Of a stretch of 64,000 nucleotides of DNA, positions 1,400 to 36,662 are shown in pieces; within the stretch, counting starts at the first letter, position 1; the number at the start of each line of letters is the position of its first letter. Position numbers and translations under genes: made by a program. Below the pieces are notes generated by a model. It saw only the letters and a list, made by a program, of their open reading frames with translations, had not been told where the DNA came from and made no database searches. Origin of the DNA: Eledone cirrhosa (lineage: Eukaryota); NCBI GenBank assembly GCA_964016885.1, contig OZ024746.1, positions 47,182,001-47,246,000 of the forward strand, in the 5' to 3' direction.

Positions 1400-4300
1400 G
1401 TTATCGTTATTCCTTGAATCTCAGTCATTGATGTTGGTTAACTGGAAAGTCCGTTGGATTGAATATCAAGCCATTACCTGCAGCCTCAGATATTCAGGAC
1501 GTATCGGAGGGTTCTTGCTGTTCCAAGCAAGCATGCCTTTTGAAGCGTTCCAAAAAGCGTGAAGGGGCCGATTTTCTTTAACCATCCCTGGAAACCTTTG
1601 GAGATAGTCCCCAGTGCGCCTATGACAATCGGGATCACTTTGACTTCATGGCAGTTCCAAATCCTTTTCACCTCCCACTTTAGGTCCTGGTATCGGCTAA
1701 TTTTCTCCCTCTCCTTCTCTTGCACTCTCGTGTCGAACGGGCAGGCCACATCCGCAATCAGGCACGATCTTTTTTCTTTGTCCACAACCACCAGGTCAGG
1801 TCTATTGTGTTCCAGTTTTTTGTCCGTCTGTATCCTAAAATCCCACAGCACCTTCACCGGACTGTTCTCCATCACCGCCTCTGGCCTATGCTCATACCAT
1901 TTCTCAGAATGTGGTAGATTGTTTACTTTGCACAGCTGCCAGTGGATCACCCTGCCCATCACATCGTGTCTCCAGCCCTTATAGTGGGTCTGGGCTAGGT
2001 GTTTACACTCGGACACAATGTGAGCCACAGTCTCCTCTCTCTCTCCACAGATCCTGCACAGTGGGCTAGCCTCCTCCTTGTAGATATGGTGCTTCAACCA
2101 CTTCGTTTTGAGGGCCTGCTCCTGCACAGCCATTAGCATTCCTTCTGTAGCCTTTTTGAGGTCTCCTCTTCTCAACCAGTTCCATGTCTGTGGATCTCTA
2201 AACTCAGTTTTCTCAAAGAAGGTACTATGAAGGGATTTTCCCTTAAGGCTGCTCTTCCTCCTTGATGTTATTTCCTCGTTGGACATCCCCTGGCCTACTG
2301 TCCCCTCCTTCAGTACAGTTCTGAGCATTGGCTCCTTACTATAGGTCACGTATTTGTATAGGTTGTTTTTCTCCATCTGAACACAGTCCTCTATGCTGAT
2401 AAGACCTCTTCCACCCTCAGATCTCCTTAGGTAGAGTCTATCGACATCACTCCTCTTGTGGAACATGTTGTAGATAGTCAATAGCTTCCTAGTCTTCCTA
2501 TCCATTTCTTTTTGTTCAGCAACATTCCATCTCAGAATTCCCGCACTGTACCTAATAATGGACACAGCTCGGGAATTTACTGCGCTTATGGCATTTCTGC
2601 TGTTCAGATGTGACTTCAATACGCTCCTTACTCTCCGAGTGTATTCAGTTCTTAACAATTCCTTCATTTTTTTGTTCTTTATGCCATCAGCCTCCAGAAC
2701 GCCCAAATACTTGTATCCTTCCTCAGAGTCAATTTCCTTTATCATCTCACCTGTTGGTATCTGGATCCCGTTACTTCTGCTCAACCTACCCCTCTTCATC
2801 ACAATGACTCCACATTTACCAATTCCAAACTGCATACATATATCACTGCTGAAAATACGGACAGTGTCAACAAGCACATCCAACTCCTTCTCACTTTTCC
2901 CGAAGAGCTTAAGATCGTCCATGAAGAGGAGGTGATTGATGGTGAGCTCTCCCCTTCCCAACTTGTATCCTGCTCTCACTTTTCGCAGCATAATGGTCAA
3001 GGGCATCAGGGCAAGGACAAACAACAGAGGGGACAGGCTATCTCCCTGGAAGATACCTCTCTTGATCTTCACGCTTCCCAAGGATACTCCAGTTGATGTC
3101 AACTCTGTCTCCCAGGACCCCATACTCCTGCCCAGCAACTGTCTGATGTTATCTGCCACCCTGAAGACCTCCAGGCTTTTGGTGATCCATGAATGAGGCA
3201 CCATGTCAAATGCCTTTCTGTAGTCTATCCATCCCATGGCAAGATCAGTGTGTCTCCTCCTGCAATTCCCCATTACCATCTTATCAATAAGCAACTGGTC
3301 CTTTGTACCACGTGACTTCTTTCGGCATCCTTTCTGTTCGTCCGGTAACAAGTTGTTTGTGTGGAGGTGATGGTAGATTTCCTCAGACACAATGCTCGTC
3401 AACAGTTTCCACATTACGGGCAGACATGTGATAGGTCTATAGTTGGTAACATCATTACCCTTGATTCGGTCTTTCATTATCAGAACTGTGGTACCTTTTG
3501 TCAACCACTCTGGCACCTCACCCGACACCAAGCAGTCATTGAACATGGCCGTCAGCTTCGGGTGGAGGGATGTTAAATGTTTAATCCAATACCCCTGCAC
3601 ACCATCTGGGCCTGGTGATTTCCAGTTGGTTAGTTTTTTGGCTTGCCCCTTAAGAGTTTCAACTGTGATACTCAAATCAGTCTGTTGTTGTGCCTTCTCA
3701 CCGATCTCCCTCTGTACTGTCTCAATCCACCCTGCCTGGGCATTGTGTCTAACATCCTGCTCCCATATTCCTCTCCAGAATGTTTTAGCTTGTTCCGCCC
3801 CAGGGATCAAGTCGTTGCCTCTTTCTTTCCCCTCAAGTTGTCCAAACAGCATCTTCTGGTTGTTGTCGAACATGCGGTTCTGTTTATACTGACTGACTCT
3901 GTTCTCGTATCGCCTGATTTTGGCACTCTTTGCTACAATGCGTTGCTTCAATTCCTCTATGATAATATTTAGCTTTTTACTCCTAGTTTTGTATTTTATT
4001 TCCAGTCTATTTTTAGTGCCTATGTTTTTTAGTGTCCCATTCAGTAGTGACTCAAGCTTTCCTATGTCATTTCTCATTTCCCCGATTTGCCCACTCAGTC
4101 GCTTCTTCCACCACGGCTCTGCTCTTTCTTGTCTGTTGTTTCCTCTCGCTTTTATACCAAGTAGTTTCCTCACCGTATTTGCTGTTGCTTTGAGGATATT
4201 GTTGCACTGGTGAAGACTCCTCGCCTCAAGGTATGGGATGACTTTGTTTACCTTAGCTGTTGTTTCTTTTAACTTTTTCCTGTCTACAAATCTTAGGTTC

Positions 4301-5965
4301 ATAGGTCTCCCACTATCATTGTTCAATTCATCTACCACTAGATTTAGGATGTCAACCGAATCTTGTCCTAGCCCGTCAGCATTCATCCCCTCAGTGGCCG
4401 TATCTCTGTTCCAGGTATTATTTATCTCAGTATTCAGATCATTGTCTGCTTCGGGTGGTTCCTCCGTTCTCAGGACCTCCTCACCTTCATTTCCCACCGG
4501 CTCGCTTGTCTGGCATACTACACCCGCCATCTCCAAGCCATTCTCTCTGCTCAGTTCCTCCAGTTCCAGCTCGCTTATCCACGCATTAGTTCTTATTACC
4601 CGAGCCTGCCCGGCCAATTTTTGTTCATCTAATTTAAATAAACCAATCTCGTTCCAGATGTTATGCATCCGTCTCCTATAGCCCTTCTCCTTGGGGTTAC
4701 TTTTCAGGTAGCATTGCATAACAGTTCTATTCAATTCTTTCGTCCAGTTGGTTCTGGCCCCTTTCCTTCTTCTTCTTCCTCCAACATCAGCAGTATTTGG
4801 TTGACAGTCAGGTTCCTGCTGCTGAGCCAGGGGGCACCTGTTGGGTGAGAGTCTGTCACATGACGTTCTAGTCTCCATTTCACCGTTATTCGAACTGTTT
4901 ATGTTCGATATTTAAACACTCTTATCGAGGATTGGCGAATGTATGTTTACATAGCCATCTGTGGATCCGCCATCCCACTTGGTCCTTGTGTGGCATTATC
5001 ACCACGCTGTATACGAACACACATAAACAAACAAACACACGGGCAGAAAGGGCCCCAAAAATGAATAAGCATAAGTTTCATTGTAATGTAGTATTCGAAT
5101 GTCTGACTTAGTTTTTGTTTTTTAAGTTTTACTTTTTCCCCCCTCTTCTCTGTCCGTCCGCCTGCTTCTCTCTTCATTCTTATTTTCTTTACGTTTTGGG
5201 GGTTTCTTTTTTTGTTTTTGTTTTTCTCTGTTTGTTTTTCTCGTTTTTTGCTGTTGTTGCTGTGCTGCTTTGGTTTTGTTGTTTGTTTTTTCTTTTTTCT
5301 TTTGAGTCTATCTATATATTTTGATGCCTTCCTCTTTTTTAGTAGTAGGGATTCTATAATGTGGAAGTAGTAGTAGCAGCCAGCAGGGAGAAGTGGGAGA
5401 GGGCGGCGTTGGCGATACTGAGACAGTGGTGGTGGTGATGTCGATACCGAGGCAGTGGTGGCGGTGATGCGACCATATTACTGTAGTGATGGTGCTGTAG
5501 CGGTGGCAGCAGCAGTGAAGGAGTCAAGGGGTGGTGGCGGCGGTGATGGGATAGTGGTGGTAATGATGGCCGTAGTGAGCGGTGGCGGTGAAGGTGAAAA
5601 TGCTGTTGTGTTTAGTGTACACAGATGATGGGGTGGGTGGTGTATCTAGTTTCTGGTGTTGGTGAGTTTAGCTGTCCTATATAGTGTAGCCAGAGGAGAG
5701 GAGGGGGGGGGGAGTTCTTCTTCCATTTATAGCCATTTTTTTTTTTTTTTTTGGATATACAGTGTACAATACAAAGTTGAATATTTGAATATTTCAGCCT
5801 TATAACAATATATTTTGGGTCCGAATTTTTTGGGGCTTAAGCCGGGTGCTTTACGTAGCATTTGTACTAAGAGTTGTTATTTCACAAATGATTTAAATAT
5901 GTTAAAAATTCAAAACTTACGGGAGCGATTTCATGGCCTCCGTCACCTCGTGCGTCTTCTTCCCT
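1400..5965 (-). mobile_element. Full-length R4/Dong family A non-LTR retrotransposon, copy A1
   Basis: ~1.1-kb 5' UTR, single ORF, short 3' UTR running into (TAA)n on the element sense strand; (TTA)n at both ends. Confidence 0.95.
1486..4878 (-). CDS. R4/Dong-type protein, 1130 aa: N-terminal Myb-like region, RT, CCHC zinc knuckle, PD-(D/E)xK endonuclease
   Basis: KSPGPDG, NYRPITCL, DYRKAFD, QGDSLSPLLF, FMDD; CRICGEREETVAHIVSEC; RHD and RPD..D..P..EK..RY motifs; uninterrupted. Confidence 0.95.
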   Translation of the reverse strand: METRTSCDRLSPNRCPLAQQQEPDCQPNTADVGGRRRRKGARTNWTKELNRTVMQCYLKSNPKEKGYRRRMHNIWNEIGLFKLDEQKLAGQARVIRTNAWISELELEELSRENGLEMAGVVCQTSEPVGNEGEEVLRTEEPPEADNDLNTEINNTWNRDTATEGMNADGLGQDSVDILNLVVDELNNDSGRPMNLRFVDRKKLKETTAKVNKVIPYLEARSLHQCNNILKATANTVRKLLGIKARGNNRQERAEPWWKKRLSGQIGEMRNDIGKLESLLNGTLKNIGTKNRLEIKYKTRSKKLNIIIEELKQRIVAKSAKIRRYENRVSQYKQNRMFDNNQKMLFGQLEGKERGNDLIPGAEQAKTFWRGIWEQDVRHNAQAGWIETVQREIGEKAQQQTDLSITVETLKGQAKKLTNWKSPGPDGVQGYWIKHLTSLHPKLTAMFNDCLVSGEVPEWLTKGTTVLIMKDRIKGNDVTNYRPITCLPVMWKLLTSIVSEEIYHHLHTNNLLPDEQKGCRKKSRGTKDQLLIDKMVMGNCRRRHTDLAMGWIDYRKAFDMVPHSWITKSLEVFRVADNIRQLLGRSMGSWETELTSTGVSLGSVKIKRGIFQGDSLSPLLFVLALMPLTIMLRKVRAGYKLGRGELTINHLLFMDDLKLFGKSEKELDVLVDTVRIFSSDICMQFGIGKCGVIVMKRGRLSRSNGIQIPTGEMIKEIDSEEGYKYLGVLEADGIKNKKMKELLRTEYTRRVRSVLKSHLNSRNAISAVNSRAVSIIRYSAGILRWNVAEQKEMDRKTRKLLTIYNMFHKRSDVDRLYLRRSEGGRGLISIEDCVQMEKNNLYKYVTYSKEPMLRTVLKEGTVGQGMSNEEITSRRKSSLKGKSLHSTFFEKTEFRDPQTWNWLRRGDLKKATEGMLMAVQEQALKTKWLKHHIYKEEASPLCRICGEREETVAHIVSECKHLAQTHYKGWRHDVMGRVIHWQLCKVNNLPHSEKWYEHRPEAVMENSPVKVLWDFRIQTDKKLEHNRPDLVVVDKEKRSCLIADVACPFDTRVQEKEREKISRYQDLKWEVKRIWNCHEVKVIPIVIGALGTISKGFQGWLKKIGPFTLFGTLQKACLLGTARTLRYVLNI

Positions 5966-6025
5966 AATTATTATTATTATTATTATTATTATTATAATTA
6001 TTATTATTATTATTAATATTATTAA

Positions 6026-6210
6026 GGGCTGTGGATTGGCAGTATCGGGAGAAGGTCGGACGCCATGCTTTCAGCATAGTTACGTCCCTTTACGATCTGA
6101 GTTCAAATCCCGCCGAGGTTGACTTTGCCATTCATCCTTACGGGGTCGATAAAATAAGTTACCAGTAATGCACTGGGTAATTGCTGGCCTTGTGCCTAAA
6201 GTAGAAACAA
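6026..6210 (+). mobile_element. tRNA-derived SINE (local family S1) with (ATT)n tail
   Basis: A-box-like TGGCAGTATCGG, B-box GAGTTCAAATCC, shared CATCCTTACGGGGTCGATAAAATAA core; multiple copies in the window. Confidence 0.85.
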
Positions 6211-6233
6211 TTATTATTATTATTATTATTATT

Positions 6234-6394
6234 ACAGCTGCATTTATCTTGCTTTATGTTCATACGAGTTATCACCAAGTCACAACCAGTGACCTCAAGA
6301 GACAACAAGGTCCGCCATGTTCAAGAAAGAACATTCATACTCACACATGCATCTTTAGTGTTTAGACTTGTGATGTACTTATATTGACAGAATC

Positions 6395-6423: not shown

Positions 6424-6425
<2 letters not shown>

Positions 6426-9400
6426 AGTTGCATTTATCTTGCTTTATGTTCATACGAGTTATCACCAAGTCACAACCAGTGACCTCAAGAGACAACAAGG
6501 TCCGCCATGTTCAAGAAAGAACATACATATTCACACATGCATCTTTAGTGTTTAGACTTGTGATGTACTTATATTGACAGAATCTTCCTTAGTATATGGG
6601 CAGTTCCCATTAGTACTATCTTTTGTATTTCTCCTATACGCGGGTTTCCTGGGATTTGCGATATGTAATCATTAGACCCCTTAGGTATCATTCCCAGAGC
6701 GCCTACAACCACTGATATTGTTTTAGTTCTCAATTTCCACATTTTTCCAATTTCTATCTCCATGTCCTTATACTTGCCCAATTTTTCAAATGTTTATATA
6801 GATACATGCTTGTCTATTGGAACAGACATATCAATTAGCAGGCATACCCTCTTTTTAAAGTCCTTCAATATTATATCAGGTCTATTTGCATCTATTTTTC
6901 GGTCTGTTTAGATGCTAAAGTTCCACAAGATTGAGATGTGATCTTTTTCAAGTATGGGAGGTGGTTGATGCTCCTACCAATTCTTTTGATGGGGCAGGTC
7001 AAAATTCTTACACATTATCCAATGTATGTATAGTGCAGCTCTGTCATGCCTGTTTAGGTATTCGGTTGAAGCTATAGGACTGCACATTGAAATTATATGG
7101 TCAATGGTCTCTGGTTGTTTTTTGCATACACGGCATAATGGGCTGCATCCATTTTTTTATTATGTTGGCTTGGTAATTTTTTGTTGGCAGACACTGATCT
7201 TGTGCTGATATAATCAGTCCTTCAGTCTCCGATTTCAGTCCAGAGGATGCCAACCACTGATGGGTTAAAGTTTTGTCAACATCAGGATTGTTAGCTCGCT
7301 CTGGGTATTTTCCATACAGAGGCTTTTCTTGCCATTTCTTAGCCAGTTTCTGTAGCAGTTCTTTCTTTGCAGTTACTTTTACCTGCTTTGCTTTTTCTGT
7401 GTTTTCCATTTCAGTAGTAAATGGGACTTCTGAAATTTGTAGTCCATTACTGTATCTTTGTGCATCTTTTGTAATGGAATATGATCTTTTGATGCTTTCG
7501 TGTTTCAAAACGAGTTTGATCATCCAATCATGTGATTCCCTTAGATATGTAGATAATCCAATTGTTGCAGTTTTCAACGCAATGTCTAACTGGATTAACC
7601 CACGTCCTCCTTCTTTCCTAGGGAGATATATTCTATCTATATCTGCCTTAGGGTGATGCATTCTGTGCATGGTTAAGAATTTTCGAATTTTTGTATCGAG
7701 CCTACGGATCTCTGTGCTTGACCAGTTGATGACATTGTAACTGTAGGTTACTACTGGTATGGCAAGCGTGTTTATGGTATCGATCCTATTCCTTGCATTC
7801 AATTCCGTTCTTAAGATTGCTCTTACTCTGCGGTAACATTCCTTCCTTATCCTTTGCCTCATTGTCGAGTGCATGATTCCGTCTCCTTCACAAACACCTA
7901 GATATTTGTAAGTTTTTTTCTTGATCAAGTTCTCTTATCACGTTCCCCCGATCAAGATTAATGTCTGAACACTTCAGCAGCTTTCCTCTGGTGAACGTTG
8001 CTTTGGCGCATTTATCTAGTCCAAACTCCATTTTAATGTTATCACTGAACTGCTCCACAGTGGATAATAGCCCTTGCAATTGTTCATCATTTTTTGCAAA
8101 TAGTTTCAGGTCATCCATGTAGAACAGGTGATTAATGGTTTTGTCATAGACTTTATATCCATGTTTTGTTTCATTGAGCATTTTACTTAATGGTATAAGT
8201 GCGATGCAGAATAAAAGCGGTGATAAAGAGTCACCCTGAACAATTCCACAATTAATATTAACTTCTCCAGCTTCCAGTGATTTTGTTTCACTATTCAAAA
8301 GGAGTGTCGTTTTCCATGTCTTCATACTGAATGACAAAAACCTCCTGATAACGGGGAATATTTTGAAAATCTCTAAACATTTTTCAATCCAACTGTGTGG
8401 CAAACTATCGAATGCTTTTTTTATAATCTATCCAAGCAATCGATAGATTTTTGTGTCTATTATGACAATCTTCCAGTATCATTTTGTTAACCAGAAGCTG
8501 ATCCTTACAGCCATATGAGCCTCGTTTACACCCTTTCTGCTCAATGGGAAATAGGTCATTTGTTATCAGGTGGTCATATGTGTATTCAGTTAGGACTGAT
8601 GTTAAAATTTTATACATTGTGATCAAGCAAGTTATCGGTCTGTAATTTTTGGGATTGTTTGTCTCATCATTCTTCGGAAGCAGGAATGTAATGCCGTTAA
8701 CTAGCCATGATGGTATCTTTTCTGGCTCCTTAACTATTTCATTGTAAAGTTGGGCTAACAGCTCATGAGACTCTGTGAAGGCATTTATCCAAAAGTTTTG
8801 TATTTTGTCTTTTCCTGGGGATTTCCATTTGCTGGTCTTTCTTAGAGCCAAGCGCAACTGTTCAACTGTTATATTTTCCCATATTTGTTCCTCAAGGTGA
8901 GCTGTATCTTTCATTTGTCTGTCTATCCATGGGGCATGTATGTTATGAACTTTTTCTTCGGCCCAGATCTTTTCCCAGAATTCTTGCACTTCCTCCTTGG
9001 CTGGTATTGATTTAGCAGTTATTGTTGACTTACCAATTTTTCTGTAGAAGTTTCTTTGGTTGTTTTTGAACATATTATTGTCCTTATAGAATCTAGATTG
9101 TTTTTCAAAGCGCCTTATACGAGCAGCTTTGGCCGACACTTTTTGCTTGATTATTTCTATCAGCATGTCTATGTCACATGTTGATTTTATACTGTACTTT
9201 TTTTTCAATTTTCTAAGTTTAGTTTGTTTAACATGTTCACCTACTTTATAGTTTGTTAAGATTTCTATGTCAGATCGGAGAAGATTTATTTGGCGATTGA
9301 TGTTCTCTTGCCAAATAGATTTCTTGTGGGAATTCCTTTGTTTTTTCATCTTCACTCCACATAAGTGAGTGGTGACTTTAGCCGATGCATAATAGAGATG

Positions 9401-11375
9401 ATTTAAATCAGTAATGTTTAGTTTGTTTGTGATGATAATGTTTTTGAGAATTATGTTAGTCTTGTGTATTATCTTTTGGTTCTGTTTGGAGTTCTGGATC
9501 TTAGGGAGGGTGTCTCGTTTCCCCATGTCAGATTCTTTCATTTTCATCCATTCGATCATAATTTCATCCTTCAAGTTGGCAAGTTCATTCTCATTCATTT
9601 CTTTATCATTTACGATCTCATTATTTTCATTTTGAGTTTCATCCTGAGCATGCACTCCCTCCACTTTTTCGATCCTTTCTTTAATTTGTTCTGTTGCCAG
9701 TGATTCCGCCCCAACCCTGGGGTTCGAAGTGTTACAGTTTACCTCGTTTTCACTGACACATGTTTCATTTTCCCTTCGCTGACTTTGTGCTAATAGCTTG
9801 ATCTGATCAATTTCTATATCAGTTAGTAACTTTTTTCTTACAATATTTCTTCGTATATTGGCTAGTTTGTTACTGTCAATATAGCCTCTGTTTTCGGGAT
9901 GTTTCTTTTTCCAGTTGATATATGTCTGTTCTGTATTCGATGTATTTGATGGGTAGTACATGGCAGTGTAGAATGCCTCAAGGACTTCTTTATTATCTTC
10001 TCTTGACCATTTTTCTCTCTTTTTCTTTGGATTTCTTGGTGGTGAGCATGGAGGGCCAACAGTAGGAGTATTCCGGTTATGGGAGGTCTCCAGCTCCGAA
10101 GTGATGGGAAGGTTTGAACCATTAGCTGATTTTTCGACCCCAGTCTGGTTCCTCTCTGAGGGACGCGGCCCTTTTTGACCCGGGTGACGGCCGATCCGTT
10201 ATGAGATTTTATCATTAGACATTTACTTTATTTTGTCGCGTTTTATCCTTATCCGCCAAGGGCTAATCATTTCGTGTTGCCACTTCTAGAACGAGTGTCA
10301 ACCAAGACTAGAGGGGTCGTTCTCCCCTAGAGACACGGCTATTCCTCGCCGGCCGCCATCCCGGTATTTCTTGGTCACGGGGTTTTCTTTTTGTTGTTTT
10401 TTTTAAATTGTTATTATCATGAGTGGTTCCTTAATGTGAGCATTGCGTTGATTAAGAATGAAATTATTAATAAGTGTCTCCACTTCAGGCACAAGGCCAG
10501 CAATCACCCAGTGCATTACAATAATATAATATACTTTTTGCTGTAGTTGCCTGTTATTGTTGTTGGCTATGTCAGTGGTGGTGCCGGGGCTTTTTATATT
10601 GTTGGTGAGGAAGGGGTGAGCCAGTAGTCCCATAGTTTTTGATGTTGACGTTTGGCCGGTGGCCAGGTCACTAAGTCAATCTATTTATATCTTTTGCTAG
10701 CCTCTCCCTTGTCTAGTGATACCGCCACCTTCCCTTTTCTCTCTCAAGTTAACAGAGGAATAGTGGTGGTAGCAATGAAGGAGTGGTGGCGGCGGCGATG
10801 GGATAGTGGTAGCAAGATGATGGATGGGGTGGTAGCGGCGGTGGCTTTGTGGTTACTGGGTTTTGTGATATGTAGTATCTATGAGTTTGTGTTCGTATGT
10901 TTAATATATATTGTGTTGACATATTCCCGTAAAATTGGAATTAAACATTTTGTTAATATTTGAGACAATAATAATAGTAATTATTATTATCATGCCGGGA
11001 TTGATGTTGGTGGTGGTGAAATTGCCGTTATCTGGCTGTTATATTTAGTGTGATGGGATAGGTGGTGTATCAACTTTCTGGTGTTGGTGAAATTGCTGTT
11101 ACTTGGCTGTTCTATATAGTATAGACAGAGGGTGTTTTCTTTCATTTATAACCATTTTCTTTTTTTTTGAATACAAAATATATAATACAAAATTGAATAT
11201 TTGAGCGATATAACAATATAATATGGATCCGAAATTTTATGGGACTTCATTCGGTGGATTATGCAACATTTGTATTAAGAATTGTTATTTCACAATTGAT
11301 TTAAATATGTTAAAAATCAAAATCTTACGGGAGCGATTTCATGACATTCTACCACCTCGTGCGTCTTCTTCCCTT
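6424..11375 (-). mobile_element. Full-length R4/Dong family B, copy B1 (disabled)
   Basis: Same domain order as family A; 5' end at GCGTCTTCTTCCCTT next to (TTA)n. Confidence 0.93.
6569..10222 (-). pseudogene. Family B RT/endonuclease ORF, broken
   Basis: Consensus start MSNDKISY at 10222; TAA at codon 8, frameshifts near 8420, 7915 and 7155, stops near 6975 and 6909; motifs WSREDNK, NYRPITCL, YMDD, CRVC..H..C, RPD. Confidence 0.9.
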
Positions 11376-11381
11376 ATCTCC

Positions 11382-11434
<53 letters not shown>

Positions 11435-14400
11435 GTTGTTATTCCTTGAATCTCAGTCATTGATGTTGGTTAACTGGAAAGTCCGTTGGATTGAATATCA
11501 AGCCACTACCTGCAACCTCAGATATTCAGGACGTATCGGAGGGTTCTTGCTGTTCCAAGCAAGCATGCCTTTTGAAGCGTTCCAAAAAGCGTGAAGGGGC
11601 CGATTTTCTTTAACCATCCCTGGAAACTTTTGGAGATAGTCCCCAGTGCGCCTTTGACAATCGGGATCACTTTGACTTCATGGCAGTTCCAAATCCTTTT
11701 CACCTCCCACTTTAGGTCCTGGTATCGGTTAATTTTCTCCCTCTCCTTCTCTTGCACTCTCGTGTCGAACGGGCAGGCCACATCCACAATCAGACACGAT
11801 CTTTTTTCCTTGTCCACAACCACCAGGTCAGGTCTATTGTATTCCAGTTTTTTGTCCGTCTGTATCCTAAAATCCCACAGCACCTTCACCTGATTGTTCT
11901 CCATCACCGCCTCTGGCCTATGCTCATACCATTTCTCAGAATGTGGTAAATTGTTTACTTTGCACAGGTGCCAGTGGATTACCCTGCCCATCACATCGTG
12001 TCTCCAGCCCTTATAGTGGGTCTGGGCTAGGTGTTTACACTCGGACACAATGTGAGCCACAGTCTCCTCTCTCTCTCCACAGATCCTGCACAGTGGGCTA
12101 GCCTCCTCCTTGTAAATATGGTGCTTCAACCACTTCGTTTTGAGGGCCTGCTCCTGCGCAGCCATTAGCATTCCTTCTGTAGCCTTTTTGAGGTCTCCTC
12201 TTCTCAAACAGTTCCATGTCTGTGGATCTCTAAATTCAGTTTTCTCAAAGAAGGTACTATGAAGGGATTTTCCCTTAAGGCTGCTCTTCCTCCTTGATGT
12301 TATTTCCTCGTTGGACATCCCCTGGCCTACTGTCCCCTCCTTCAGTACAGTTCTGAGCATTGGCTCCTTACTATAGGTCACGTATTTGTATAGGTTGTTT
12401 TTCTCCATCTGAACACAGTCCTCTATGCTGATAAGACCTCTTCCACCCTCAGATCTCCTTAGGTAGAGTCTATCGACATCACTCCTCTTGTGGAACATGT
12501 TGTAGATAGTCAATAGCTTCCTAGTCTTCCTATCCATTTCTTTTTGTTCAGCAACATTCCAGCTCAGAATTACCGCACTGTACCTAATTATAGACACAGC
12601 TCGGGAATTTACTGCGCTTATGGCATTTCTGCTGTTCAGATGTGACTTCAATACGCTCCTTACTCTCCGAATGTATTCAGTTCTTAACAATTCCTTCATT
12701 TTTTTGTTCTTTATGCCATCAGCCTCCAGAACGCCCAAATACTTGTATCCTTCCTCAGAGTCAATTTCCTTTATCATCTCACCTGTTGGTATCTGGATCC
12801 CGTTACTTCTGCTCAACCTACCCCTCCTCATCACAATGATTCCACATTTACTAATACCAAACTGCATACATATATCACTGCTGAAAATACGGACAGTGTC
12901 AACAAGCACATCCAACTCCTTCTCACTTTTCCCGAAGAGCTTAAGATCGTCCATGAAGAGGAGGTGATTGATGGTAAGCTCTCCCTTTCCCAACTTGTAT
13001 CCTGCTCTCACTTTTCGCAGCATAATGGTCAAGGGCATCAGGGCAAGGACAAACAACAGAGGGGACAGGCTATCTCCCTGGAAGATACCTCTCTTGATCT
13101 TCACGCTTCCCAAGGATTCTCCAGTTGATGTCAACTCTGTCTCCCAGGACCCCATACTCCTGCCCAGCAGCTGTCTGATGTTATCTGCCACCCTGAAGAT
13201 CTCCAGGCTTTTGGTGATCCAAGAATGAGGCACCATGTCAAATGCCTTTCTGTAGTCTATCCATCCCATGGCAAGACCAATGTGTCTCCTCCTGCAATTC
13301 CCCATTCCCATCTTATCAATAAGTAACTGGTCCTTTGTACCACGTGACTTCTTTCGGCATCCTTTCTGTTCGTCCGGTAACAAGTTGTTTGTGTGGAGGT
13401 GATGGTAGATTTCCTCAGACACAATGCTCGTCAACAATTTCCACATTACGGACAGACATGTGATAGGTCTATAGTTGGTAACATCATTACCCTTGATTCG
13501 GTCTTTCATTATCAGAACTGTGGTACCTTTTGTCAACCACTCTGGCACCTCACCCGACACCAAGCAGTCATTGAACATGGCCGTCAGCTTCGGGTGGAGG
13601 GATGTTAAATTTTTAATCCAATACCCCTGCACACCATCTGGGCCTGGTGATTTCCAGTTGGTTAGTTTTTTGGCCTGCCCCTTAAGAGTTTCAACTGTGA
13701 TACTCAAATCAGTTTGTTGGTGTGCCTGCTCACCGATCTCCCTCTGTACTGTATCAATCCACCCTGCCTGGACATTATGTCTAACATCCTGCTCCCATAT
13801 TCCTCTCCAGAATGTTTTAGTTTGCTCCGCCCCAGGGATCAAGTCGTTGCCTCTTTCTTTCCCCTCAAGCTGTCCAAACAGCATCTTCTGGTTGTTGTCG
13901 AACATGCGGTTCTGTTTATACTGACTGACTCTGTTCTCGTATCGCCTGATTTTTGCACTCTTTGCTACAATGCGTTGCTTCAGTTCCTCTATGATAATAT
14001 TTAGCTTTTTCCTCCTAGTTTTGTACTTTATTTCCAGTCTATTTTTAGTGCCTATGTTTTTTAGTGTCCCATTCAGTAGTGACTCAAGCTTTCCTATGTC
14101 ATTTCTCATTTCCCCGATTTGACCACTCAGTCGTTTCTTCCACCACGGCTCTGCTCTTTCTTGTCTGTTGTTTCCTCTCGCTTTTATACCAAGTAGTTTC
14201 CTCACCGTATTTGCTGTTGCTTTGAGGATATTGTTGCACTGGTGAAGGCTCCTCGCCTCAAGGTATGGGATGACTTTGTTTACCTTAGCTGTTGTTTCTT
14301 TTAACTTTTTCCTGTCTACAAATCTTAGGTTCATAGGTCTCCCACTATCATTGTTCAATTCATCTACCACTAAATTTAGGTTGTCAACCGAATCTTGTCC

Positions 14401-15983
14401 TAGCCCGTCAGCATTCATCTCCTCAGTGGCCGTATCTCTGTTCCAGGTATTATTTATCTCAGTATTCAGATCATTGTCTGCTTCGGGTGGTTCCTCCGTT
14501 CTCAGGACCTCTTCACCTTCATTTCCCACTGGCTCGCTTGTCTGGCATACTACACCCGCCATCTCCAAGCCATTCTCTCTGCTCAGTTCCTCCAGTTCCA
14601 GCTCGCTTATCCACCCATTAGTTCTTATTACCCGTGCCTGCCCGGCCAATTTTTGTTCATCTAATTTAAATAGACCAATTTCGTTCCAGATGTTATGCAT
14701 CCGTCTCCTGTAGCCCCTCTCCTTGGGGTTACTTTTCAGGTAACATTGCATAACAGTTCTATTCAATTCTTTCGTCCAGTTGGTTCTGGCCCCTTTCCTT
14801 CTTCTTCTTCCTCCAACATCAGCAGTATTTGGTTGACAGTCAGGTTCCTGCTGCTGAGCCAGGGGGCACCTGTTGGGTGAGTGTCTGTCACATGACGTTC
14901 TAGTCTCCATTTCACCGTTATTCGAACTGTTTATTTTCGATATTTAAACACTCTTATCGAGGATTGGCGAATGTATGGTTACATAGCCATCTGTGGATTC
15001 GCCGTTCCACTTGGCCCTTGTGTGGCATTATCACCACGCTATATACGAACACACATAAACAAACAAACACACAGGCAGAAAGGGCCCCAAAAATAAATAA
15101 GCATAAGTTTCATCGTAATATAGTGTTCGAACGTCTGACTTAGTTTTTGTTTTTTTAGTTTTAGTTTTTCCCCCCTCTTCTCTGTCCGTCCGCCTGCTTC
15201 TCTCTTCATTCTTATTTTCTTTACGTTTTTTGTTGTTTTTTTTTGTTGTTTTTTTTCTCTGTTTGTTTTTCTCATTTTTTGCTGTTGTTGCTGTGCTGCT
15301 TTGGTTTTGTTGTTTGTTTTTTCTTTTTTCTTTTGAGTCTATCTATATATTTTGATGCCTTCCTCTTTTTTAGTAGTAGGAATTCTATAATGTGGTGGCA
15401 GCAGCCAGCTGGTAAACGTGGAAACTGGCGGCGGTAGCGATACTGAGACAGTGGTGGTGGTGATGTCGATACCGAGGCAGTGGTGGTGGTGATGTGATCG
15501 TATTACTGTAGTGATGGTGTTGTAGCGGTGGTAGCAGTGAAGGAGTGAAGGAGTGGTGGCGGCGGTGATGGGATAGTGGTGGTAATGATGGCAGTAGTGA
15601 GCGGTGGTGGTTAAATTGCCGTTATCTGGCTGTTGTGTTTAGTGTACACAGGTGATGAGGTGGGTGGTGTATCTAGTTTCTGGTGTTGGTGAGTTTGGCT
15701 GTTCTATATAGTGTAGACAGAGGAGAGGAGGGAGGGGTTATTCTTCCATTTATAGCCATTTTCTTTTTTGGATATACAGTGTACAATACAAAGTTGAATA
15801 TTTGAATATTTGAGCCTTATAACAATATATTTTGGGTCCGAATTTTTTAGGGCTCAAGCCGGGTGCTTTACGTAGCATTTGTACTAAGAGTTGTTATTTC
15901 ACAAATGATTTAAATATGTTAAAAATTCAAAATTTACGGGAGCAATTTCATGACCTCCGCCACCTCGTGCGTCTTCTTCCCTT
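11435..15983 (-). mobile_element. Full-length R4/Dong family A, copy A2
   Basis: Colinear and highly similar to A1; (TTA)n at both ends. Confidence 0.95.
11518..14910 (-). CDS. R4/Dong-type RT/endonuclease protein, 1130 aa, intact
   Basis: Same length and motifs as 1486-4878, with scattered substitutions. Confidence 0.95.
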   Translation of the reverse strand: METRTSCDRHSPNRCPLAQQQEPDCQPNTADVGGRRRRKGARTNWTKELNRTVMQCYLKSNPKERGYRRRMHNIWNEIGLFKLDEQKLAGQARVIRTNGWISELELEELSRENGLEMAGVVCQTSEPVGNEGEEVLRTEEPPEADNDLNTEINNTWNRDTATEEMNADGLGQDSVDNLNLVVDELNNDSGRPMNLRFVDRKKLKETTAKVNKVIPYLEARSLHQCNNILKATANTVRKLLGIKARGNNRQERAEPWWKKRLSGQIGEMRNDIGKLESLLNGTLKNIGTKNRLEIKYKTRRKKLNIIIEELKQRIVAKSAKIRRYENRVSQYKQNRMFDNNQKMLFGQLEGKERGNDLIPGAEQTKTFWRGIWEQDVRHNVQAGWIDTVQREIGEQAHQQTDLSITVETLKGQAKKLTNWKSPGPDGVQGYWIKNLTSLHPKLTAMFNDCLVSGEVPEWLTKGTTVLIMKDRIKGNDVTNYRPITCLSVMWKLLTSIVSEEIYHHLHTNNLLPDEQKGCRKKSRGTKDQLLIDKMGMGNCRRRHIGLAMGWIDYRKAFDMVPHSWITKSLEIFRVADNIRQLLGRSMGSWETELTSTGESLGSVKIKRGIFQGDSLSPLLFVLALMPLTIMLRKVRAGYKLGKGELTINHLLFMDDLKLFGKSEKELDVLVDTVRIFSSDICMQFGISKCGIIVMRRGRLSRSNGIQIPTGEMIKEIDSEEGYKYLGVLEADGIKNKKMKELLRTEYIRRVRSVLKSHLNSRNAISAVNSRAVSIIRYSAVILSWNVAEQKEMDRKTRKLLTIYNMFHKRSDVDRLYLRRSEGGRGLISIEDCVQMEKNNLYKYVTYSKEPMLRTVLKEGTVGQGMSNEEITSRRKSSLKGKSLHSTFFEKTEFRDPQTWNCLRRGDLKKATEGMLMAAQEQALKTKWLKHHIYKEEASPLCRICGEREETVAHIVSECKHLAQTHYKGWRHDVMGRVIHWHLCKVNNLPHSEKWYEHRPEAVMENNQVKVLWDFRIQTDKKLEYNRPDLVVVDKEKRSCLIVDVACPFDTRVQEKEREKINRYQDLKWEVKRIWNCHEVKVIPIVKGALGTISKSFQGWLKKIGPFTLFGTLQKACLLGTARTLRYVLNI

Positions 15984-15990
15984 ACTCTTC

Positions 15991-16054
<64 letters not shown>

Positions 16055-16056
<2 letters not shown>

Positions 16057-19000
16057 AGCTGCATTTATCTTGCTTTATGTTCATACGAGTTATCACCAAG
16101 TCACAACCAGTGACCTCAAGAGACAACAAGGTCCGCCATGTTCAAGAAAGAACATACATATTCACACATGTATCTTTAGGTGTTTAGACTTGTGATGTAC
16201 TTATATTGACAGAATCTTCCTTAGTATATGGGCAGTTCCCATTAGTACTATCTTTTGTATTTCTCCTATACACGGGTTTCCTGGGATTTGCGATAAGTAA
16301 TCATTAGACTCCTTAGGTATCATTCCTAGAGCGCCTACAACCACTGGTATTGTTTTAGTTCTCAATTTCCACATTTTTCCAATTTCTATCTCCAGGTCCT
16401 TATACTTGCGCAATTTTTCAAATGTTTTTATAGATACATTCTTGTCTATTGGAACGGACATATCAATTAGCAGGCATACCCTCTTTTTAAAGTCCTTCAA
16501 TATTATATCAGGTCTATTTGCATCTATTTTTCGGTCTGTTTGGATGCTAAAGTTCCACAAGATTGAGATGTGATCTTTTTCAAGTATGGGAGGAGGTTGA
16601 TGCTCCCACCAATTCTTTTGATGGGGCAGGTCAAAATGCTTACACATTATCCAATGTATGTATTGTGCAGCTCTGTCATGCCTGTTTAGGTATTCGGTTG
16701 GAGCTATAGGACTGCACATTGAAATTATATGGTGAATGGTCTCTGGTTGTTTTTTACATACATGGCATAATGGGCTGCATCCATTTTTTATTATGTTGGC
16801 TTGGTAAATTTTTGTTGGCAGACACTGATCTTGTGCTGATATAATCAGTCCTTCAGTCTCCGATTTCAGTCCAGAGGATGCTAACCACTGATGGGTTAAA
16901 GTTTTGTCAACATCAGGATTGTTAGCTCGTTCTGGGTATTTTCCATACAGAGGCTTTTCTTGCCATTTCCTAGCCAGTTTCTGTAGCAGTTCTTTCTTTG
17001 CAGTTACTTTTACCTGCTTTGCCTTTTCTGTGTTTTCCATTTCAGCAGTAAATGGGACTTCTGAAATGTGTAGTCCATTACTGTATCTTTGTGCATCTTT
17101 TGTAATGGAGTATGATCTTTGATGCTTTCGTGTTTCAAAACGAGTTTGATCATCCAATCATGTGATTCCCTTAGATATGTAGATAATCCAATTGTTGCAG
17201 TTTTCAACGCAATGTCTAACTGGATTAACCCACGTCCTCCTTCTTTCCTAGGGAGATATATTCTATCTGTATCTGCCTTAGGGTGATGCATTCTGTGCAT
17301 GGTTAAGAATTTTCGAATTTTTGTATCGAGCCTACGGATCTCTGTGCTTGACCAGTTGATGACATTGTAACTGTAGGTTACTACTGGTATGGCAAGCGTG
17401 TTTATGGCATCGATCCTATTCCTTGCATTCAATTCCGTTCTTAAGATTGCTCTTACTCTGCGGTAACATTCCTTCCTTATCCTTTCCCTCATTGTCTCTT
17501 ATCACATTCCCCCGATCAAGATTAATGTCTGAACTTTTCAGCAGTTTTCCTCTGGTGAACGTTGCTTTGGCGCATTTATCTAGTCCAAACTCCATATTAA
17601 TGTCATCACTGAACTGCTCCACAGTGGATAATAGCCCTTGCAATTGTTCATCATTTTTTGCAAATAGTTTCAGGTCATCCATGTAGAACAAGTGATTAAT
17701 GGTTTTGTCATAGACTTTATATCCATGTTTTGTTTCATTGAGCATTTTACTTAATGGTATAAGTGCGATGCAGAATAAAAGCGGTGATAAAGAGTCACCC
17801 TGAAAAATTCCACAATTAATATTAACTTCTCCAGCTTCCAGTGATTTTGTTTCACTATTCAAAAGGAGTGTCGTTTTCCATGTCTTCATACTGAATGACA
17901 AAAACCTCCTGACAACGGGAGATATTTTGAAAATCTCTAAACATTTTTCAATCCAACTGTGTGGCAAACTATCGAGTGCTTTTTTATAATCTATCCAAGC
18001 AATTGATAGATTTTTGTGTCTATTATGACAATCTTCCAGTATCATTTTGTTAACCAAAAGCTGATCCTTACAGCCATATGAGCCTCGTTTACACCCTTTC
18101 TGCTCAATAGGAAATAGGTCATTTGTTATCAGGTGGTCATATGTGTATTCAGTTAGGACTGATGTTAAAATTTTATACATTGTGGTCAAGCAAGTTATCG
18201 GTCTGTAATTTTTGGAATTGTTTGTCTCATCATTCTTTGGAAGCAGGAATGTAATGCCGTTAACTAGCCATGATGGTATCGTTTCCAGCTCCTTAACTAT
18301 TTCATTGTAAAGTTGGGCTAACAGCTCATGAGACTCTGTGAAGGCATTTATCCAAAAGTTTTGTATTTTGTCTTTTCCTGGGGATTTCCATTTGCTGGTT
18401 TTTCTTAGAGCCAAGCGCAACTGTTCAACTGTTATATTTTCCCATATTTGTTCTTCAAGGTGAGCTGTATCTTTCATTTGTCTGTCTGTCCATGGGGCAT
18501 GTACGTTATAAACTTTTTCTTCAGCCCAGATCTTTTCCCAGAATTCTTGCACTTCCTCCTTGGGTGGTATTGATTTAGCAGTTATTGTTGGCTTACCAAT
18601 TTTTCTGTAGAAGTTTCTTTGGTTGTTTTTGAACATATTATCGTCCTTATAGAATCTAGATTGTTTTTCAAAGCGCCTTATACGAGCAGCTTTGGCCGAC
18701 ACTTTTTGCTTGATTATTTCTATCAGCATGTCTATGTCACTTGTTGATTTTATACTGTACTTTCTTTTCAATTTTCTAATTTTAGTTTGTTTAACATGTT
18801 CACCTACTTTATAGTTTGTTAAAATTTCTATGTCAGATCGGAGAAGGTTTATTTGGCGATTGATGTTCTCTTGCCAAGTAGATTTCTTGTGGGAATTCCT
18901 TTGTTTTTTCATCTTCACTCCACATAAGTGAGTGGTGACTTTAGCCGATGCATAATAGAGATGATTTAAATCAGTAATGTTTAGTTTGTTTGTGATGATA

Positions 19001-20238
19001 ATGTTTTTGAGAATTATGTTAGTCTTGTGTATTATCTTTTGGTTCTGTTTGGAGTTCTGGATCTTAGGGAGGGTGTCTCTTTGCCCCATGTCAGATTCTT
19101 TCATTTTCATCCATTCGATCATAATTTCATCCTTCAAGTGGGCAAGTTCATTCTCATTCATTTCTTTATCATTTACGATCTCATTGTTTTCATTTTGAGT
19201 TTCATCTTGAGCATGCACCCCCTCCTTTTTCAATCCTTTCTTTAATTTGTTCTGTTGTCAGTGATTCCGCCCCAACCCTGGGATTCGAAGTGTTACAATT
19301 TACCTCGTTTTCACTGACACTTGTTTCATTTTCCCTTCGCTGACTTTGTGCTAATAGCTTGATCTGATCAATTTCTATATCAGTTAGTAACTTTTTTTTA
19401 CAATATTTCTTCGTAATTGGCCAGTTTGTTACTGTCAATATGGCCTCTGTTTTCGGGATGTTTCTTTTTCCAGTTGATATATGTCTGTTCTGTATTCGAT
19501 GTATTTGATGGGTAGTACATGGCAGTGTAGAAAGCCTCAAGGACTTCTTTATTATCTTCCCTTGACCATTTTTCTCTCATTTTCTTTGGATTTCTTGGTG
19601 GTGAGCATGGAGGGCCAACAGTAGGAGTATTCCGGTTATGGGAGGTCTCCAGCTCCGAAGTGATGGGAAGGTTTGAACCATTACTGATTTTTCGACCCCA
19701 GTCTGGTTCCTCTCTGAGGGACGCGGCCCTTTTTGACCCGGGTGACGGCCGATCCGGTATGAGATTTTATCATTAGAAATTTACTTTATTTTGTCGCGTT
19801 TTATCCTTATCCGCCAAGGGGTAATCATTTCGTGTTACCACTTCTAGAACGAGTGTCAACCAAGACTAGAGGGGTCGTCCTCCCCTAGAGACACGGCTAT
19901 TCCCCGCCGGCCGCCATCCCTGTATTTCTTGGTCACGGGGTTTTCTTTTTTGTTGTTTTTTAATTTGTTATTATCATGAGTGGTTCCTTAATGTGAGCAT
20001 TGCGTGGCTTAAGAATGAAATTATTAATAATATAATATACTTTTTGCTGAAGTTGCCTGTTATTGTTGTTGGCTATGTCGGTGGTGGTGCTGAGGCTTTT
20101 TCTATTGTTGGTGGGGAAGGGAGGAGCCAGCTGTGCCATAGTCGTTGACGTTTGGCCGGTGGCCGGGTCACTAAGTCAATCTATTTATATCTTTTGCTAG
20201 CCTCTCCCTTGTCTAGTGATACTGCCACCTTCCCCTTT
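16055..20238 (-). mobile_element. Family B copy B2 (disabled; distal 5' UTR missing, fused to a family A fragment)
   Basis: ORF pieces 16201-17157, 17010-17492, 17416-19233; ~65-bp deletion at ~17496; start ATG changed to ATT. Confidence 0.92.
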
Positions 20239-20991
20239 AAGTTCTGGTATCGGTTAATTTTCTCCCTCTCCTTCTCTTGCACTCTCGTGCCAAATGGGCA
20301 GGCTACATCTACAATCAGGCACGTTCTTTTTTCCTTGTCCAAAACCACCTGGTCAGGTCTATTGTGTTCCAGTTTCTTGTCCGTCTGTATCCTAAAATCC
20401 CATAGCACCTTCACCTGATCGTTTTCTATCACCGACTCTGGTTTATGCTCATACCATTTCTCAGAATGTGGTAAATTGTTTACTTTGCACAGGTGCCAGT
20501 GGATCACCCTGCCCATCACATCATGTCTCCAGCCCTTATAGTGGGTCTGGGCTAGGTGTTTACACTCGGATACAATGTGAGCCACAGTCACCTCTCTCTC
20601 TCTCCACAGATTCTGCAGAGTGGGCTAGCCTCCTCCTTGTAGATATGGTGTTTCAACCACTTCGTTTTGAGGGCCTGCTCTTGCGCAGCCATTAGCATTC
20701 CTTCTGTAGCCTTTTTAAGGTCTCCTCTTTTCAACCAGTTCCATGTCTGTGGATCTCTGAATTCAGTTTTCTCAAAGAAGGTACTATGAAGGGATTTTTC
20801 CTGAAGGCTGCTCTTTCTCCTTGTTTTTATTTCCTCCTTGGACATCCCCTGATCTATTGTCCTCTCCTTCAGTACAGTTCCTAGCATTGGCTCCTTACTA
20901 TCAGTCGCGTATTTGTATAGGTTGTTTTTCTCCATCTAAACACAGTCCTCTATGCTAATAAGACCTCTTCCACCTTCAGATCTCCTTAAGT
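20235..20991 (-). mobile_element. Diverged family A internal fragment lacking both ends
   Basis: Matches the family A zinc knuckle/endonuclease region with more substitutions and a frameshift near 20590. Confidence 0.9.
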
Positions 20992-21005
20992 ATATTATTA
21001 TTATT

Positions 21006-24000
21006 ACAGTTGCGTTTATCTTGGTTTATGTTCATACGAGTTATCACCAAGTCACAACCAATGACCTCAAGGGACAACAAGGTCCGCCATGTTCAAGAAA
21101 GAACATACATATTCACACATGCATCTTTAGTGTTTAGACTTGTGATGTACTTATATTGACAGAATCTTCCTTAATATATGGGCAGTTCCCATTAGTACTA
21201 TCTTTTGTATTATCCTATACGCGAGTTTCCTGGGATTTGCGATAAGTAATCATTAGACCCCTTAGGTATCATTCCCAGAGCGCCTACAACCACTGTTATT
21301 GTTTTAGTTCTCAATTTCCACATTTTTCCAATTTCTATCTCCAGATCCTTATACTTGCGCAATTTTTCAAATGTTTTTATAGATACATTCATGTCTATTG
21401 GAACGGACATATCAATTAGCAGGCATACCCTCTTTTTAAAGTCCTTCAATATTATATCAGGTCTATTTGCATCTATTTTTCGGTCTGTTTGGATGCTAAA
21501 GTTCCACAAGATTGAGATGTGATCTTTTTCAAGTATGGGAGGTGGTTGATGCTCCCACCAATTCTTTTGATGGGATGGGTAAAAATGCTTACACATTATC
21601 CAATGTATATATTGTGCAGCTCTGTCATGCCTGTTTAGGTATTCGGTTGGAGCTATAGGACTGCACATTGAAATTATATGGTCAATGGTCTCTGGTTGTT
21701 TTTTGCATACACGGCATAATGGGCTGCATCCATTTTTTATTATGTTGGCTTGGTAGTTTTTGTTGGCAGACACTGATCTTGTGCTGATATAATCAGTATT
21801 TCAGTCTCCAATTTCAGTCCAGAGGATGCCAACCACTGATGGGTTAAAGTTTTGTCAACTTCAGGATTGTTAGCTCGTTCTGGGTATTTTCCATACAGAG
21901 GCTTTTCTTGCCATTTCTTAGCCAGTTTCTGTAGCAGTTCTTTCTTTGCAGTTACTTTTACCTGCTTTGCTTTTTCTGTGTTTTCCATTTCAGCAGTAAA
22001 TGGGACTTCTGAAATTTGTAGTCCATTACTGTATCTTTGTGCATCTTTTGTAATGGAATATGATCCTTTGATGCTTTCGTGTTTCAAAACGAGTTTGATC
22101 ATCCAATCATATGATTCCCTTATATATATAGATAATCCAATTGTTGCAGTTTTCAACGCAATGTCTAACTGGATTAACCCACGTCCTCCTTCTTTCCTAG
22201 GGAGATATATTCTATCTGTATCTGCCTTAGGGTGATGCATTCTGTGCATGGTTAAGAATTTTCGAATTTTTGTATCGAGCCTACGGATCTCTGTGCTTGA
22301 CCAATTGATGACATTGTAACTGTAGGTTACTACTGGTATGGCAAGCGTGTTTATGGCATCGATCCTATTCCTTGCATTCAATTCCGTTCTTAAGACTGCT
22401 CTTACTCTGCGGTAACATTCCTTCCTTATCCTTTCCCTCATTGTCGACTGCTTGATTCCGTCTCCTTCACAAACACCTAGATATATGCAAGTTTCCTCTT
22501 GATCAAGTTCTCTTATCACATTACCCCGATCAAGATTAATGTCTGAACTTTTCAGCAGCTTTCCTCTGGTGAACGTTGCTTTGGCGCATTTATCTAGTCC
22601 AAACGCCATTTTAATGTCATCACTAGACTGCTCCACAGTGGATAATAGCCCTTGCAATTGTTCATCATTTTTTGCAAATAGTTTCAAGTCATCCATGTAG
22701 AACAGGTGATTAATGGTTTTGTCATAGACTTTATATCCATGTTTTGTTTCATTGAGCATTTTACTTAATGGTATAAGTGCGATGCAGAATAAAAGCGGTG
22801 ATAAAGAGTCACCCTGAAAAATTCCACAATTAATATTAACTTCTCCAGCTTCCAGTGATTTTGTTTCACTATTCAAAAGGAGTGTCGTTTTCCATGTCTT
22901 CATACTGAATGACAAAAACCTCCTGACAACGGGAGATATTTTGAAAATCTCTAAACATTTTTCAATCCAACTGTGTGGCAAACTATCGAATGCTTTTTTT
23001 ATAATCTATCCAAGCAATTGATAGATTTTTGTGTCTATTATGACAATCTTCCAGTATCATTTTGTTAACCAAAAGCTGATCCTTACAGCCATATGAGCCT
23101 CGCTTACACCCTTTCTGCTCAATAGGAAATAGGTCATTTGTTATCAGGTGGTCATATGTGTATTCAGTTAGGACTGATGTTAAAATTTTATACATTGTGG
23201 TCAAGCAAGTTATCGGTCTGTAATTTTTGGGATTGTTTGTCTCATCATTCTTCGGAAGCAGGAATGTAATGCCGTTAACTAGCCATGATGGTATCTTTTC
23301 TGGCTCCTTAACTATTTCATTGTAAAGTTGGGCTAACAGCTCATGAGACTCTGTGGAGGCATTTATCCAAAAATTTTGTATTTTGTCTTTTCCTGGGGAT
23401 TTCCATTTGCTGGTTTTTCTTAGAGCCAAGCGCAACTGTTCAACTGTTATATTTTCCCATATTTGTTCTTCAAGGTGAGCTGTATCTTTCATTTGTCTGT
23501 CTGTCCATGGGGCATGTACGTTATAAACTTTTTCTTCGGCCCAGATCTTTTCCCAGAATTCTTGCACTTCCTCCTTGGGTGGTATTGATTTAGCAGTTAT
23601 TGTTGGCTTACCAATTTTTCTGTAGAAATTTCTTTGGTTGTTTTTGAACATATTATTGTCCTTATAGAATCTAGATCGTTTTTCAAAGCGACTTATACGA
23701 GCAGCTTTGGCCGACACTTTTTGCTTGATTATTTCTATCAGCATGTCTATGTCACTTGTTGATTTTATACAGTACTTTCTTTTCAATTTTCTAATTTTAG
23801 TTTGTTTAACATGTTCACCTACTTTATAGTTTGTTAAAATTTCTATGTCAGATCGGAGAAGGTTTATTTGGCGATTGATGTTCTCTTGCCAAGTAGATTT
23901 CTTGTGGGAATTCCTTTGTTTTTTCATCTTCACTCTACATAAGTGAGTGGTGACTTTAGCCGATGCATAATAGAGATGATTTAAATCAGTAATGTTTAGT

Positions 24001-26019: not shown

Positions 26020-26034
26020 CTTCTTATTATTATC

Positions 26035-26074
<40 letters not shown>

Positions 26075-34085: not shown

Positions 34086-34722
34086 ATATATGTATATATA
34101 TATATATATATATAGCTTAGTAAAGTCGAAGCTTTGGCTGTGGGCAAGCAAAGTCGACCTACAATAGGAATGAGCTAGCAAACCACTCAATAAGGGTAAG
34201 TCCTTAGAGTAATAACATACGTTTAAATAGCTTGACAAATTGAACATTGTGGTAGGCAAAACCCAACCACACAATAGCAAAGTAACGAAAGAATTAACAA
34301 GTTAAAAGATACACCTGGACAAATTAAACGATATACGTCTAAAGTGTTTCTATGATTCCGAAATCATTTATCCAACTTACGTAACACGCACGCTTGTGGT
34401 ATTCCATGATATATATTTATATATTACCTATTGAGTACGCTGAAATGCAACCGGTACTAGCAGGGAAACTTTTGCTAGTTCCGTCAACTTATTATTATTA
34501 TTATTATTGACGAAAGTGGATGTACGTTTTTTGAAGCTCCGTGAGTAAGCAATTTTTTGAGGATTAATTGTAGAGAATTGTTTATTTTTTGTACCGCTGA
34601 AGCATTATAAGACATTAATTTGTATCCTGTGAAGGAATAACTCATAATATTTGGGCCTTTTGGCCCAAATATTTGAACTTTATTTTGAAAAAAAAAAATA
34701 ATAATTTTTTTCTCAAAAAAAC

Positions 34723-36633: not shown

Positions 36634-36662
36634 ACCTTTCCTCTCCCATTCATCCTGCCAGC

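Follow-up and report, generated by a model that had tools for sequence, protein, structure and literature searches.

The window analysed here is a 64,000-nt stretch of the Eledone cirrhosa genome (3.0 Gb), and its first 26,074 nt form a head-to-tail array of two LINE families, A and B, on the minus strand with (TAA)n between copies. Family A contributes two full-length copies, A1 (1405–5964), with an intact ORF at 4878–1486, and A2 (11444–15981), whose intact single ORF (14910–11518) carries the reverse transcriptase (RT), a CCHC motif, and a PD..D endonuclease motif. Family B contributes the full-length copies B1 (6425–11373), whose ORF from the ATG at 10222 is broken by one stop and frameshifts, and B3 (21007–26017), with a frameshifted ORF, together with B2 (16056–20238), which has no head. 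An A ORF fragment (20226–20992, minus strand) is fused directly to the B2 UTR, the two alignments overlapping by 13 nt with no TAA spacer, and this join at 20226–20238 is an A/B fusion within the window. The unstranded (TAA)n array at 11382–11443 links A2, at its 3′ end, with the 5′ terminus of B1, and similar arrays lie at 5967–6024, 15992–16055, and 26024–26074.

The Dong/R4 layout is a single ORF with RT, CCHC, and PD..D endonuclease. Families A and B each have a single ORF with a central non-LTR reverse transcriptase and are inserted in (TAA)n. A1 and A2, each with a 1,141-aa frame, carry the RVT_1 domain, as does B, for which locus L169 supplies an intact natural frame of 1,112 aa; R2 proteins are the best matches among solved structures, and 24 intact A frames occur among the 117 copies examined. 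No Exo_endo_phos match was obtained on A or B frames, and hence no APE domain. By reading of the translations, a C-x2-C-x8-H-x4-C knuckle, RHD, and RPD-x12-D lie in the C-terminal part, where they answer to the CCHC and PD..D motifs. TAA or GAA repeats precede 97 of 100 heads, and the 5′ ends are precise at GGG. One ORF with these three features in a TAA-repeat setting fits Dong/R4, for which (TAA)n is the described target (PMC3812793). A1 is 41 per cent and B 36.5 per cent identical to one Anolis RT protein, and A1 and the intact B of L169 are 36 per cent identical over 1,137 aa, well short of the half of residues that had been estimated by eye. In a protein tree of 44 of 122 rows (unnamed homologues plus the Anolis protein, without named Dong or R4, and with 78 of 120 homologues left out), A falls among elements of other sources, B is a long branch, and a sister relationship of A and B is rejected (AU p=2.6e-4).

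Several further repeats occur in the window and at other loci. The young B UTRs (10453–10519 and 25030–25096) contain 67 nt left over from a short dispersed repeat, and the same repeat is found at 6024–6234 and at several other window sites; the remnant is missing in the old B copy L126, and L178 has a longer opposite-strand insert at that point. An APE-type LINE with three overlapping frames (endonuclease, RT, and zf-RVT) lies at 34705–40081 on the plus strand, and an 824-aa open frame without a Pfam match at 53924–56398 (plus strand) is flanked by a 236-bp perfect direct repeat (53587–53822 and 60774–61009). A 1.1-kb inverted repeat, 98.7 per cent identical (61529–62642 and 62886–64000), reaches the window end. 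Loci L017–L020 (G000:C28:114.44-114.46 Mb) are a pure B tandem array with a 4,955-bp period. Two other repeat families, at L014:1-1430 and L054:1-1430, border many TAA arrays with their 5′ ends, in the opposite orientation, and their ORFs are similar to one another and LINE ORF1-like by eye. Two recurrent upstream flanks that had been candidates for additional Dong families belong to elements on the opposite strand, which have different ORFs and meet the arrays by their 5′ ends.

All four full-length elements start with GGGAAGAAGACGCAC on the minus strand, and the common plus-strand terminus attributed to them by the sequence-only reading, GCGTCTTCTTCCCT, is present at 5952–5965, 11361–11374, 15969–15982, and 26005–26018, with (TTA)n within 0–9 nt after each. 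The shared 5′ module spans 5597–5964 in A1, 11019–11373 in B1 (where the element start, GGG, is at 11373), 15613–15981 in A2, where it is B-derived, and 25655–26017 in B3, all on the minus strand. Homology of the four modules is clear, and the description of them as near-identical, at some 80–90 per cent, overstates the degree: A-versus-B identity is 75–80 per cent by BLAST and 70–80 per cent across all global-alignment columns, reaching 87–88 per cent with gapped columns ignored. A GT-rich block of the B1 UTR (10770–10840, minus strand) and its A2 equivalent (15530–15610, minus strand) were likewise rightly paired, aligning at 10776–10867 versus 15546–15637 with 78 per cent identity. Codon-aligned A and B ORF DNA is only 49 per cent identical, and four-fold sites agree at 34/118, or 28.8 per cent, against 26.8 per cent expected from composition. 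Because these sites are saturated, the likeness of the modules goes far beyond what the ORFs would permit; a UTR no more alike than the synonymous sites, which the earlier reading had named as the outcome that speaks against it, is not what is seen, the ORF four-fold sites being at chance.

In both of these Dong/R4-type LINE lineages the module is where the element itself truly begins. A 21-nt terminus has 1,303 exact matches in the genome and none for its reversed control, and the first 100 of these matches, which all lie on C1 as do all full-length loci examined, lead into A in 69 cases, into B in thirty, and in one (L150) into an internally deleted A in which a 91-nt head is fused to an A tail. 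An older head type has 289 matches, and the forty examined comprise thirty-two A (five by eye), three B, and five that are interrupted or not attributed; a mid-age type has 156 matches, and the twenty examined comprise eighteen A, one B, and one without a body. A third Dong partner of the head was sought and none appeared among the 100 young heads; of 12,158 endonuclease-motif matches, the first 100 were A or B variants by eye, a sample that rare families could have escaped.

The direction of at least one transfer is preserved in intermediates. Six of the twenty mid-type loci match the B copy L178 at 87–90 per cent over nt 1–700 and then pass into old-A UTR from nt ~165, with the microhomology CAA at the switch. 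This junction pattern has 168 exact genome matches against 0 for its control, these being counts of which some were inspected, and the equivalent position in B1 is 10709–10711 (minus strand, the same 3-nt CAA). The chimera heads are 91 per cent identical to mid-B heads (a group of two copies, as old-B is one of three to four) and 67 per cent identical to old-A2 heads, and the chimera ORFs are 93 per cent identical to old-A2 ORFs. In a head tree of 89 of 134 heads, built on ~230 indel-rich columns with forty-five plain young-A heads and four heads without an anchor left out, young-A heads lie inside the ladder of B heads, old-A heads are separate, and the family label changes four times; a single A clade is rejected by the AU test (p=8e-6, and p=0.017 without two back-chimeras).

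The ORF tree of family A (58 of 108 copies, 820 columns, fifty young A and sixteen young B ORFs being left out) forms one ladder that passes from old-headed copies through chimeras with 700 nt of B and internally deleted forms to young A; the node of the capture, which lies above the old-headed copies, has an SH-aLRT of 99. The longest end branches are found among the old-headed copies, so the root of the ladder probably lies there. Every younger A copy sampled falls in a single clade with these chimeras at its base and descends from them. Four chimeras have end branches of 0.016–0.023; by a rate from another species, in which 0.09 corresponds to 25 My (PMC13282606), their age would crudely be roughly 5 My. 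Later internal deletions in A trimmed the captured leader, and what survives is the 370-nt module and the GT-rich block, the latter a part of the ~700 nt of B UTR taken by A and, in A2, a remnant of it. The unit that moved was thus ~700 nt and not the ~370 bp first proposed. As in recruitment of the L1 type, the 5′ UTR tree conflicts with the ORF tree and one breakpoint is common to a multi-copy family.

Traffic also went the other way. Two junctions between an A head and a B body are both multi-copy (sixty and five matches, controls 0), and an A-type UTR ahead of B was confirmed in 9/10 and 5/5 of their loci; the A-side letters of the first were also seen as a joint in contigs of runs X1–X3, which derive from one sample. 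Old-A1 and old-B heads are 76.6 per cent identical (only three old-B heads), a likeness that suggests at least one earlier exchange, in either direction, and exchange of heads between A and B has probably recurred. The proposal of a swap between old lineages is therefore borne out with donor B, recipient A, the junction kept in its many exact copies, and later reciprocal exchange. We consider it very probable that A took its leader from B and later returned versions of it, and that a likely intron lies within the leader common to both, itself a likely promoter.

Two explanations would dispense with exchange. The module might be an independent repeat or host cassette, inserted beside both families or separately captured by them, and its short first exon, intron, and ATG in good context do resemble the 5′ end of a host gene. 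A SINE or MITE, however, should leave solo copies with a 3′ end of their own, and 0/100 young heads are solo; 35/40 old-type and 19/20 mid-type heads lead into A or B, and the piece captured by A extends past the module into B-specific UTR. Capture of a free cassette, which the sequence-only reading had offered beside a swap, thus finds no counterpart among these heads, nor does the mainly independent repeat that it had named as contrary evidence, and this origin is most improbable. The module might instead have been inherited from a common ancestor of A and B and held similar by purifying selection, much as in L1 from lizards, frogs, and fish, where conserved 5′ ends across divergent non-mammalian families have been described (PMC5381506). 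Head blocks at nt 1–20 and 41–100 do agree across all ten groups in 13–15 of 20 columns. Within lineages, however, head differences exceed ORF four-fold differences in 5/6 comparisons, 2–5 fold (Fisher p 0.0003–0.03; for example 42/218 versus 16/173 and 24/216 versus 8/205), in a set of six that are non-independent, of which one is equal (p=1), and which alignment error or hidden recombination could inflate. A head that evolves faster than the silent sites of its own ORF leaves purifying selection no explanation of the A/B likeness. The preserved fusion junction refutes inheritance for the young module, the head tree conflict also speaks against it, and A and B are not sister proteins by the AU test given above; inheritance is accordingly very hard to credit, and exchange remains the preferred account. 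Selection may still be shaping the short conserved blocks of the head, and the sequence CCC/GTAAG is kept in most heads of every group.

That last boundary opens an AT-rich GT...AG segment within the module, which the sequence-only reading had passed over. In B1 the first 45 nt of the head (11329–11373, minus strand) are a likely exon 1, with CACGAG near +14, which we take to be an E-box-like motif, and the following 170 nt (11159–11328, minus strand) are a likely intron. The corresponding GT-AG segments lie at 15763–15937 in A2 and 25806–25972 in B3, and that of A1 (5740–5920) keeps the donor and has lost the acceptor AG. Heads without the GTAAG continuation number four matches, two of them point variants and the others L312 and L314, in which nt 45 is joined straight to AAAATGG and the exact GT...AG segment (~170 nt) is gone without microhomology, as precise spliceosomal removal would leave it. 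L312 and L314 differ in contig, B subtype, and flanks, and two independent B copies lacking the exact segment point to an intron and to Pol II transcription. The joint 11158>11329, with ends CT..AC, is also listed in contigs of run X1, the kind of which is unrecorded and which is not expression evidence. The only spliced-type copies are these two, both B; a spliced A-type or old-type junction pattern had 0 genome matches, and no such joint appeared in runs X1–X3. About 40/63 young A heads lack the acceptor AG, so splicing there cannot be essential.

On present sequence grounds an internal promoter would be the best reading of the module, through which A and B may be co-regulated and the new head may have given A a selective advantage; the fixed 5′ start and the two spliced-type copies speak for a Pol II promoter indirectly. 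The hexamer at head nt 14–19 (e.g. 11355–11360, minus strand) varies among CACATG (22/40 old heads), CACGTG, and CACGAG, presumably bHLH-type E-box variants. UTR nt ~169–493 are tandemly duplicated in a young-A subfamily of about 20/100 loci (L091, L100, L111, and similar), and nt ~159–779 in L108 and L174; these duplications of the A UTR repeat the acceptor region. The ATG that follows the acceptor was considered as the start of a conserved upstream ORF, and the idea was dropped, as by eye the frame differs among the window copies.

The head could alternatively be shared as a self-cleaving ribozyme, or because it is released from a co-transcript in the way known from silkmoth Dong, and not as a promoter. 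Self-cleavage at the 5′ end is described for Bombyx mori Dong and for Ascaris R4 (PMC3774820), the precise GGG ends after TAA or GAA repeats (97/100) are of the kind that cleavage would leave, and host co-transcripts are a possible source of the spliced copies. Against this, and with the scans run without a positive control, Rfam gave no ribozyme match at E<=5, and HDV-like descriptors of the B. mori type gave no consistent match at the 5′ terminus (1/149 heads with a loose descriptor). Nor was there a consensus RNA fold or covariation in the head (29 rows, -0.02 kcal/mol). A ribozyme role for the head therefore seems unlikely, if a little less so than the two histories without exchange, and the promoter reading is retained. 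Six weak Rfam matches in 4900–26200 were all far below gathering scores. A GC-rich segment of the B UTR upstream of the ORF (10288–10376, minus strand) is conserved between old and young B, and a descriptor fitted to it post hoc finds HDV-like nested P1/P2/P3 pairing in 21/29 B copies and in 1.5 per cent of shuffles; one helix shows a series of G-C, G-U, and A-U pairs, and the usual catalytic linker is missing. This segment may be what remains of an ancestral 5′ end of B, or an element acting in translation.

The way in which heads and bodies were joined may be read from their arrangement. Among the 100 heads, fifty-four come immediately after the 3′ end of an A or B copy, and twenty-eight of these after one of the other family (eighteen B-then-A and ten A-then-B). 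Both families would insert into (TAA)n, including that of each other's tails, and mixed head-to-tail arrays would follow. A microhomology join within a B-then-A array would then yield an element with a B head and an A body, either by DNA deletion or by a template jump on read-through RNA; the junction microhomology of only 3 nt fits deletion and template switching alike. Many heads are fused to a distal part of an element (L150, L154, L227, and L293), and, taken with the mixed arrays, the A/B2 fusion in the window, and a capture junction outside TAA repeat, they make fusion within an array, at the DNA or the RNA level, the most likely route, one that we hold to be somewhat probable. A switch between separate RNAs is a possible though doubtful alternative, and nested insertion is improbable, because the place in B where the capture junction falls does not consist of TAA repeat. 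At L009, L027, L040, and L169 the 5′ junctions contain short repeated head pieces or GAA runs, which suggests that the template was switched more than once as reverse transcription came to its end.

Mouse L1 is an established case of 5′ UTR recruitment and of recombination between families, and coexistence there has been linked to non-homologous promoters (PMC3600994). There, as here, a 3′ body recruits the 5′ end of another family and chimeric master elements multiply; the proposed mechanisms are template switching or DNA recombination. The mouse families, as presented in that source, belong mostly to one lineage, whereas here two lineages with 36 per cent protein identity coexist on one head, heads have passed in both directions, and the elements belong to the RLE type. 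Non-mammalian L1 is described as having conserved 5′ ends and little replacement (PMC5381506), and co-option of L1 promoters has been reported (bioRxiv 2025.02.02.635956). Rare copies made from RNA spliced inside the 5′ UTR have a parallel in the L1 SpIREs (PMC5860796), although here the element is of Dong/R4 type and two such copies stand against at least 1,303 unspliced termini. The Dong of B. mori and the R4 of Ascaris (PMC3774820; PMC3812793) share the TAA-microsatellite target and have a 5′ self-cleaving HDV-like ribozyme, in contrast to the 1.07–1.15 kb UTR of A and B with its foldless head and GT-AG segment. For Octopus vulgaris, five Dong-R4 families and 1,129 recent insertions are listed (PMC13282606), and the Dong-R4 elements of O. 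vulgaris and O. bimaculoides are probably of the same kind (PMC13282606; PMC9115989; PMC8967140); the main texts of these three sources hold nothing on Dong UTRs, and their supplements or repeat libraries could hold the A and B families. Replacement of 5′ UTRs had been put down by the sequence-only reading as known from mammalian L1 and not from R4/Dong, and in the full-text literature, as far as its partial coverage extends and supplements aside, no report of 5′ exchange in Dong/R4 was found.

Four points set this case apart within known 5′ UTR recruitment: how distant the two lineages are, exchange in both directions, the survival of intermediates, and the likely intron. The acquisition of new 5′ ends by LINEs is a long-standing question, for which the intermediates in L1 are mostly lost. 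Because donor, recipient, junction, and trimming steps all survive here, along with many intact copies, both the mechanism and the selective advantage are directly testable. The regulatory exchange runs across 36 per cent protein identity in RLE-type elements, a group under development as R2-type insertion tools, and it is contrary to the mouse L1 pattern of different promoters for coexisting lineages. Tentatively, two Dong lineages as distant from one another as each is from a lizard element may form one regulatory unit, in which an ancestral 5′ ribozyme would have been replaced by a fast-evolving, intron-bearing Pol II leader, and mixed (TAA)n arrays would pass repressor-escaping versions of that leader back and forth, each sweeping its recipient lineage. 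These observations suggest that a Dong element can exchange ribozyme processing for a promoter.
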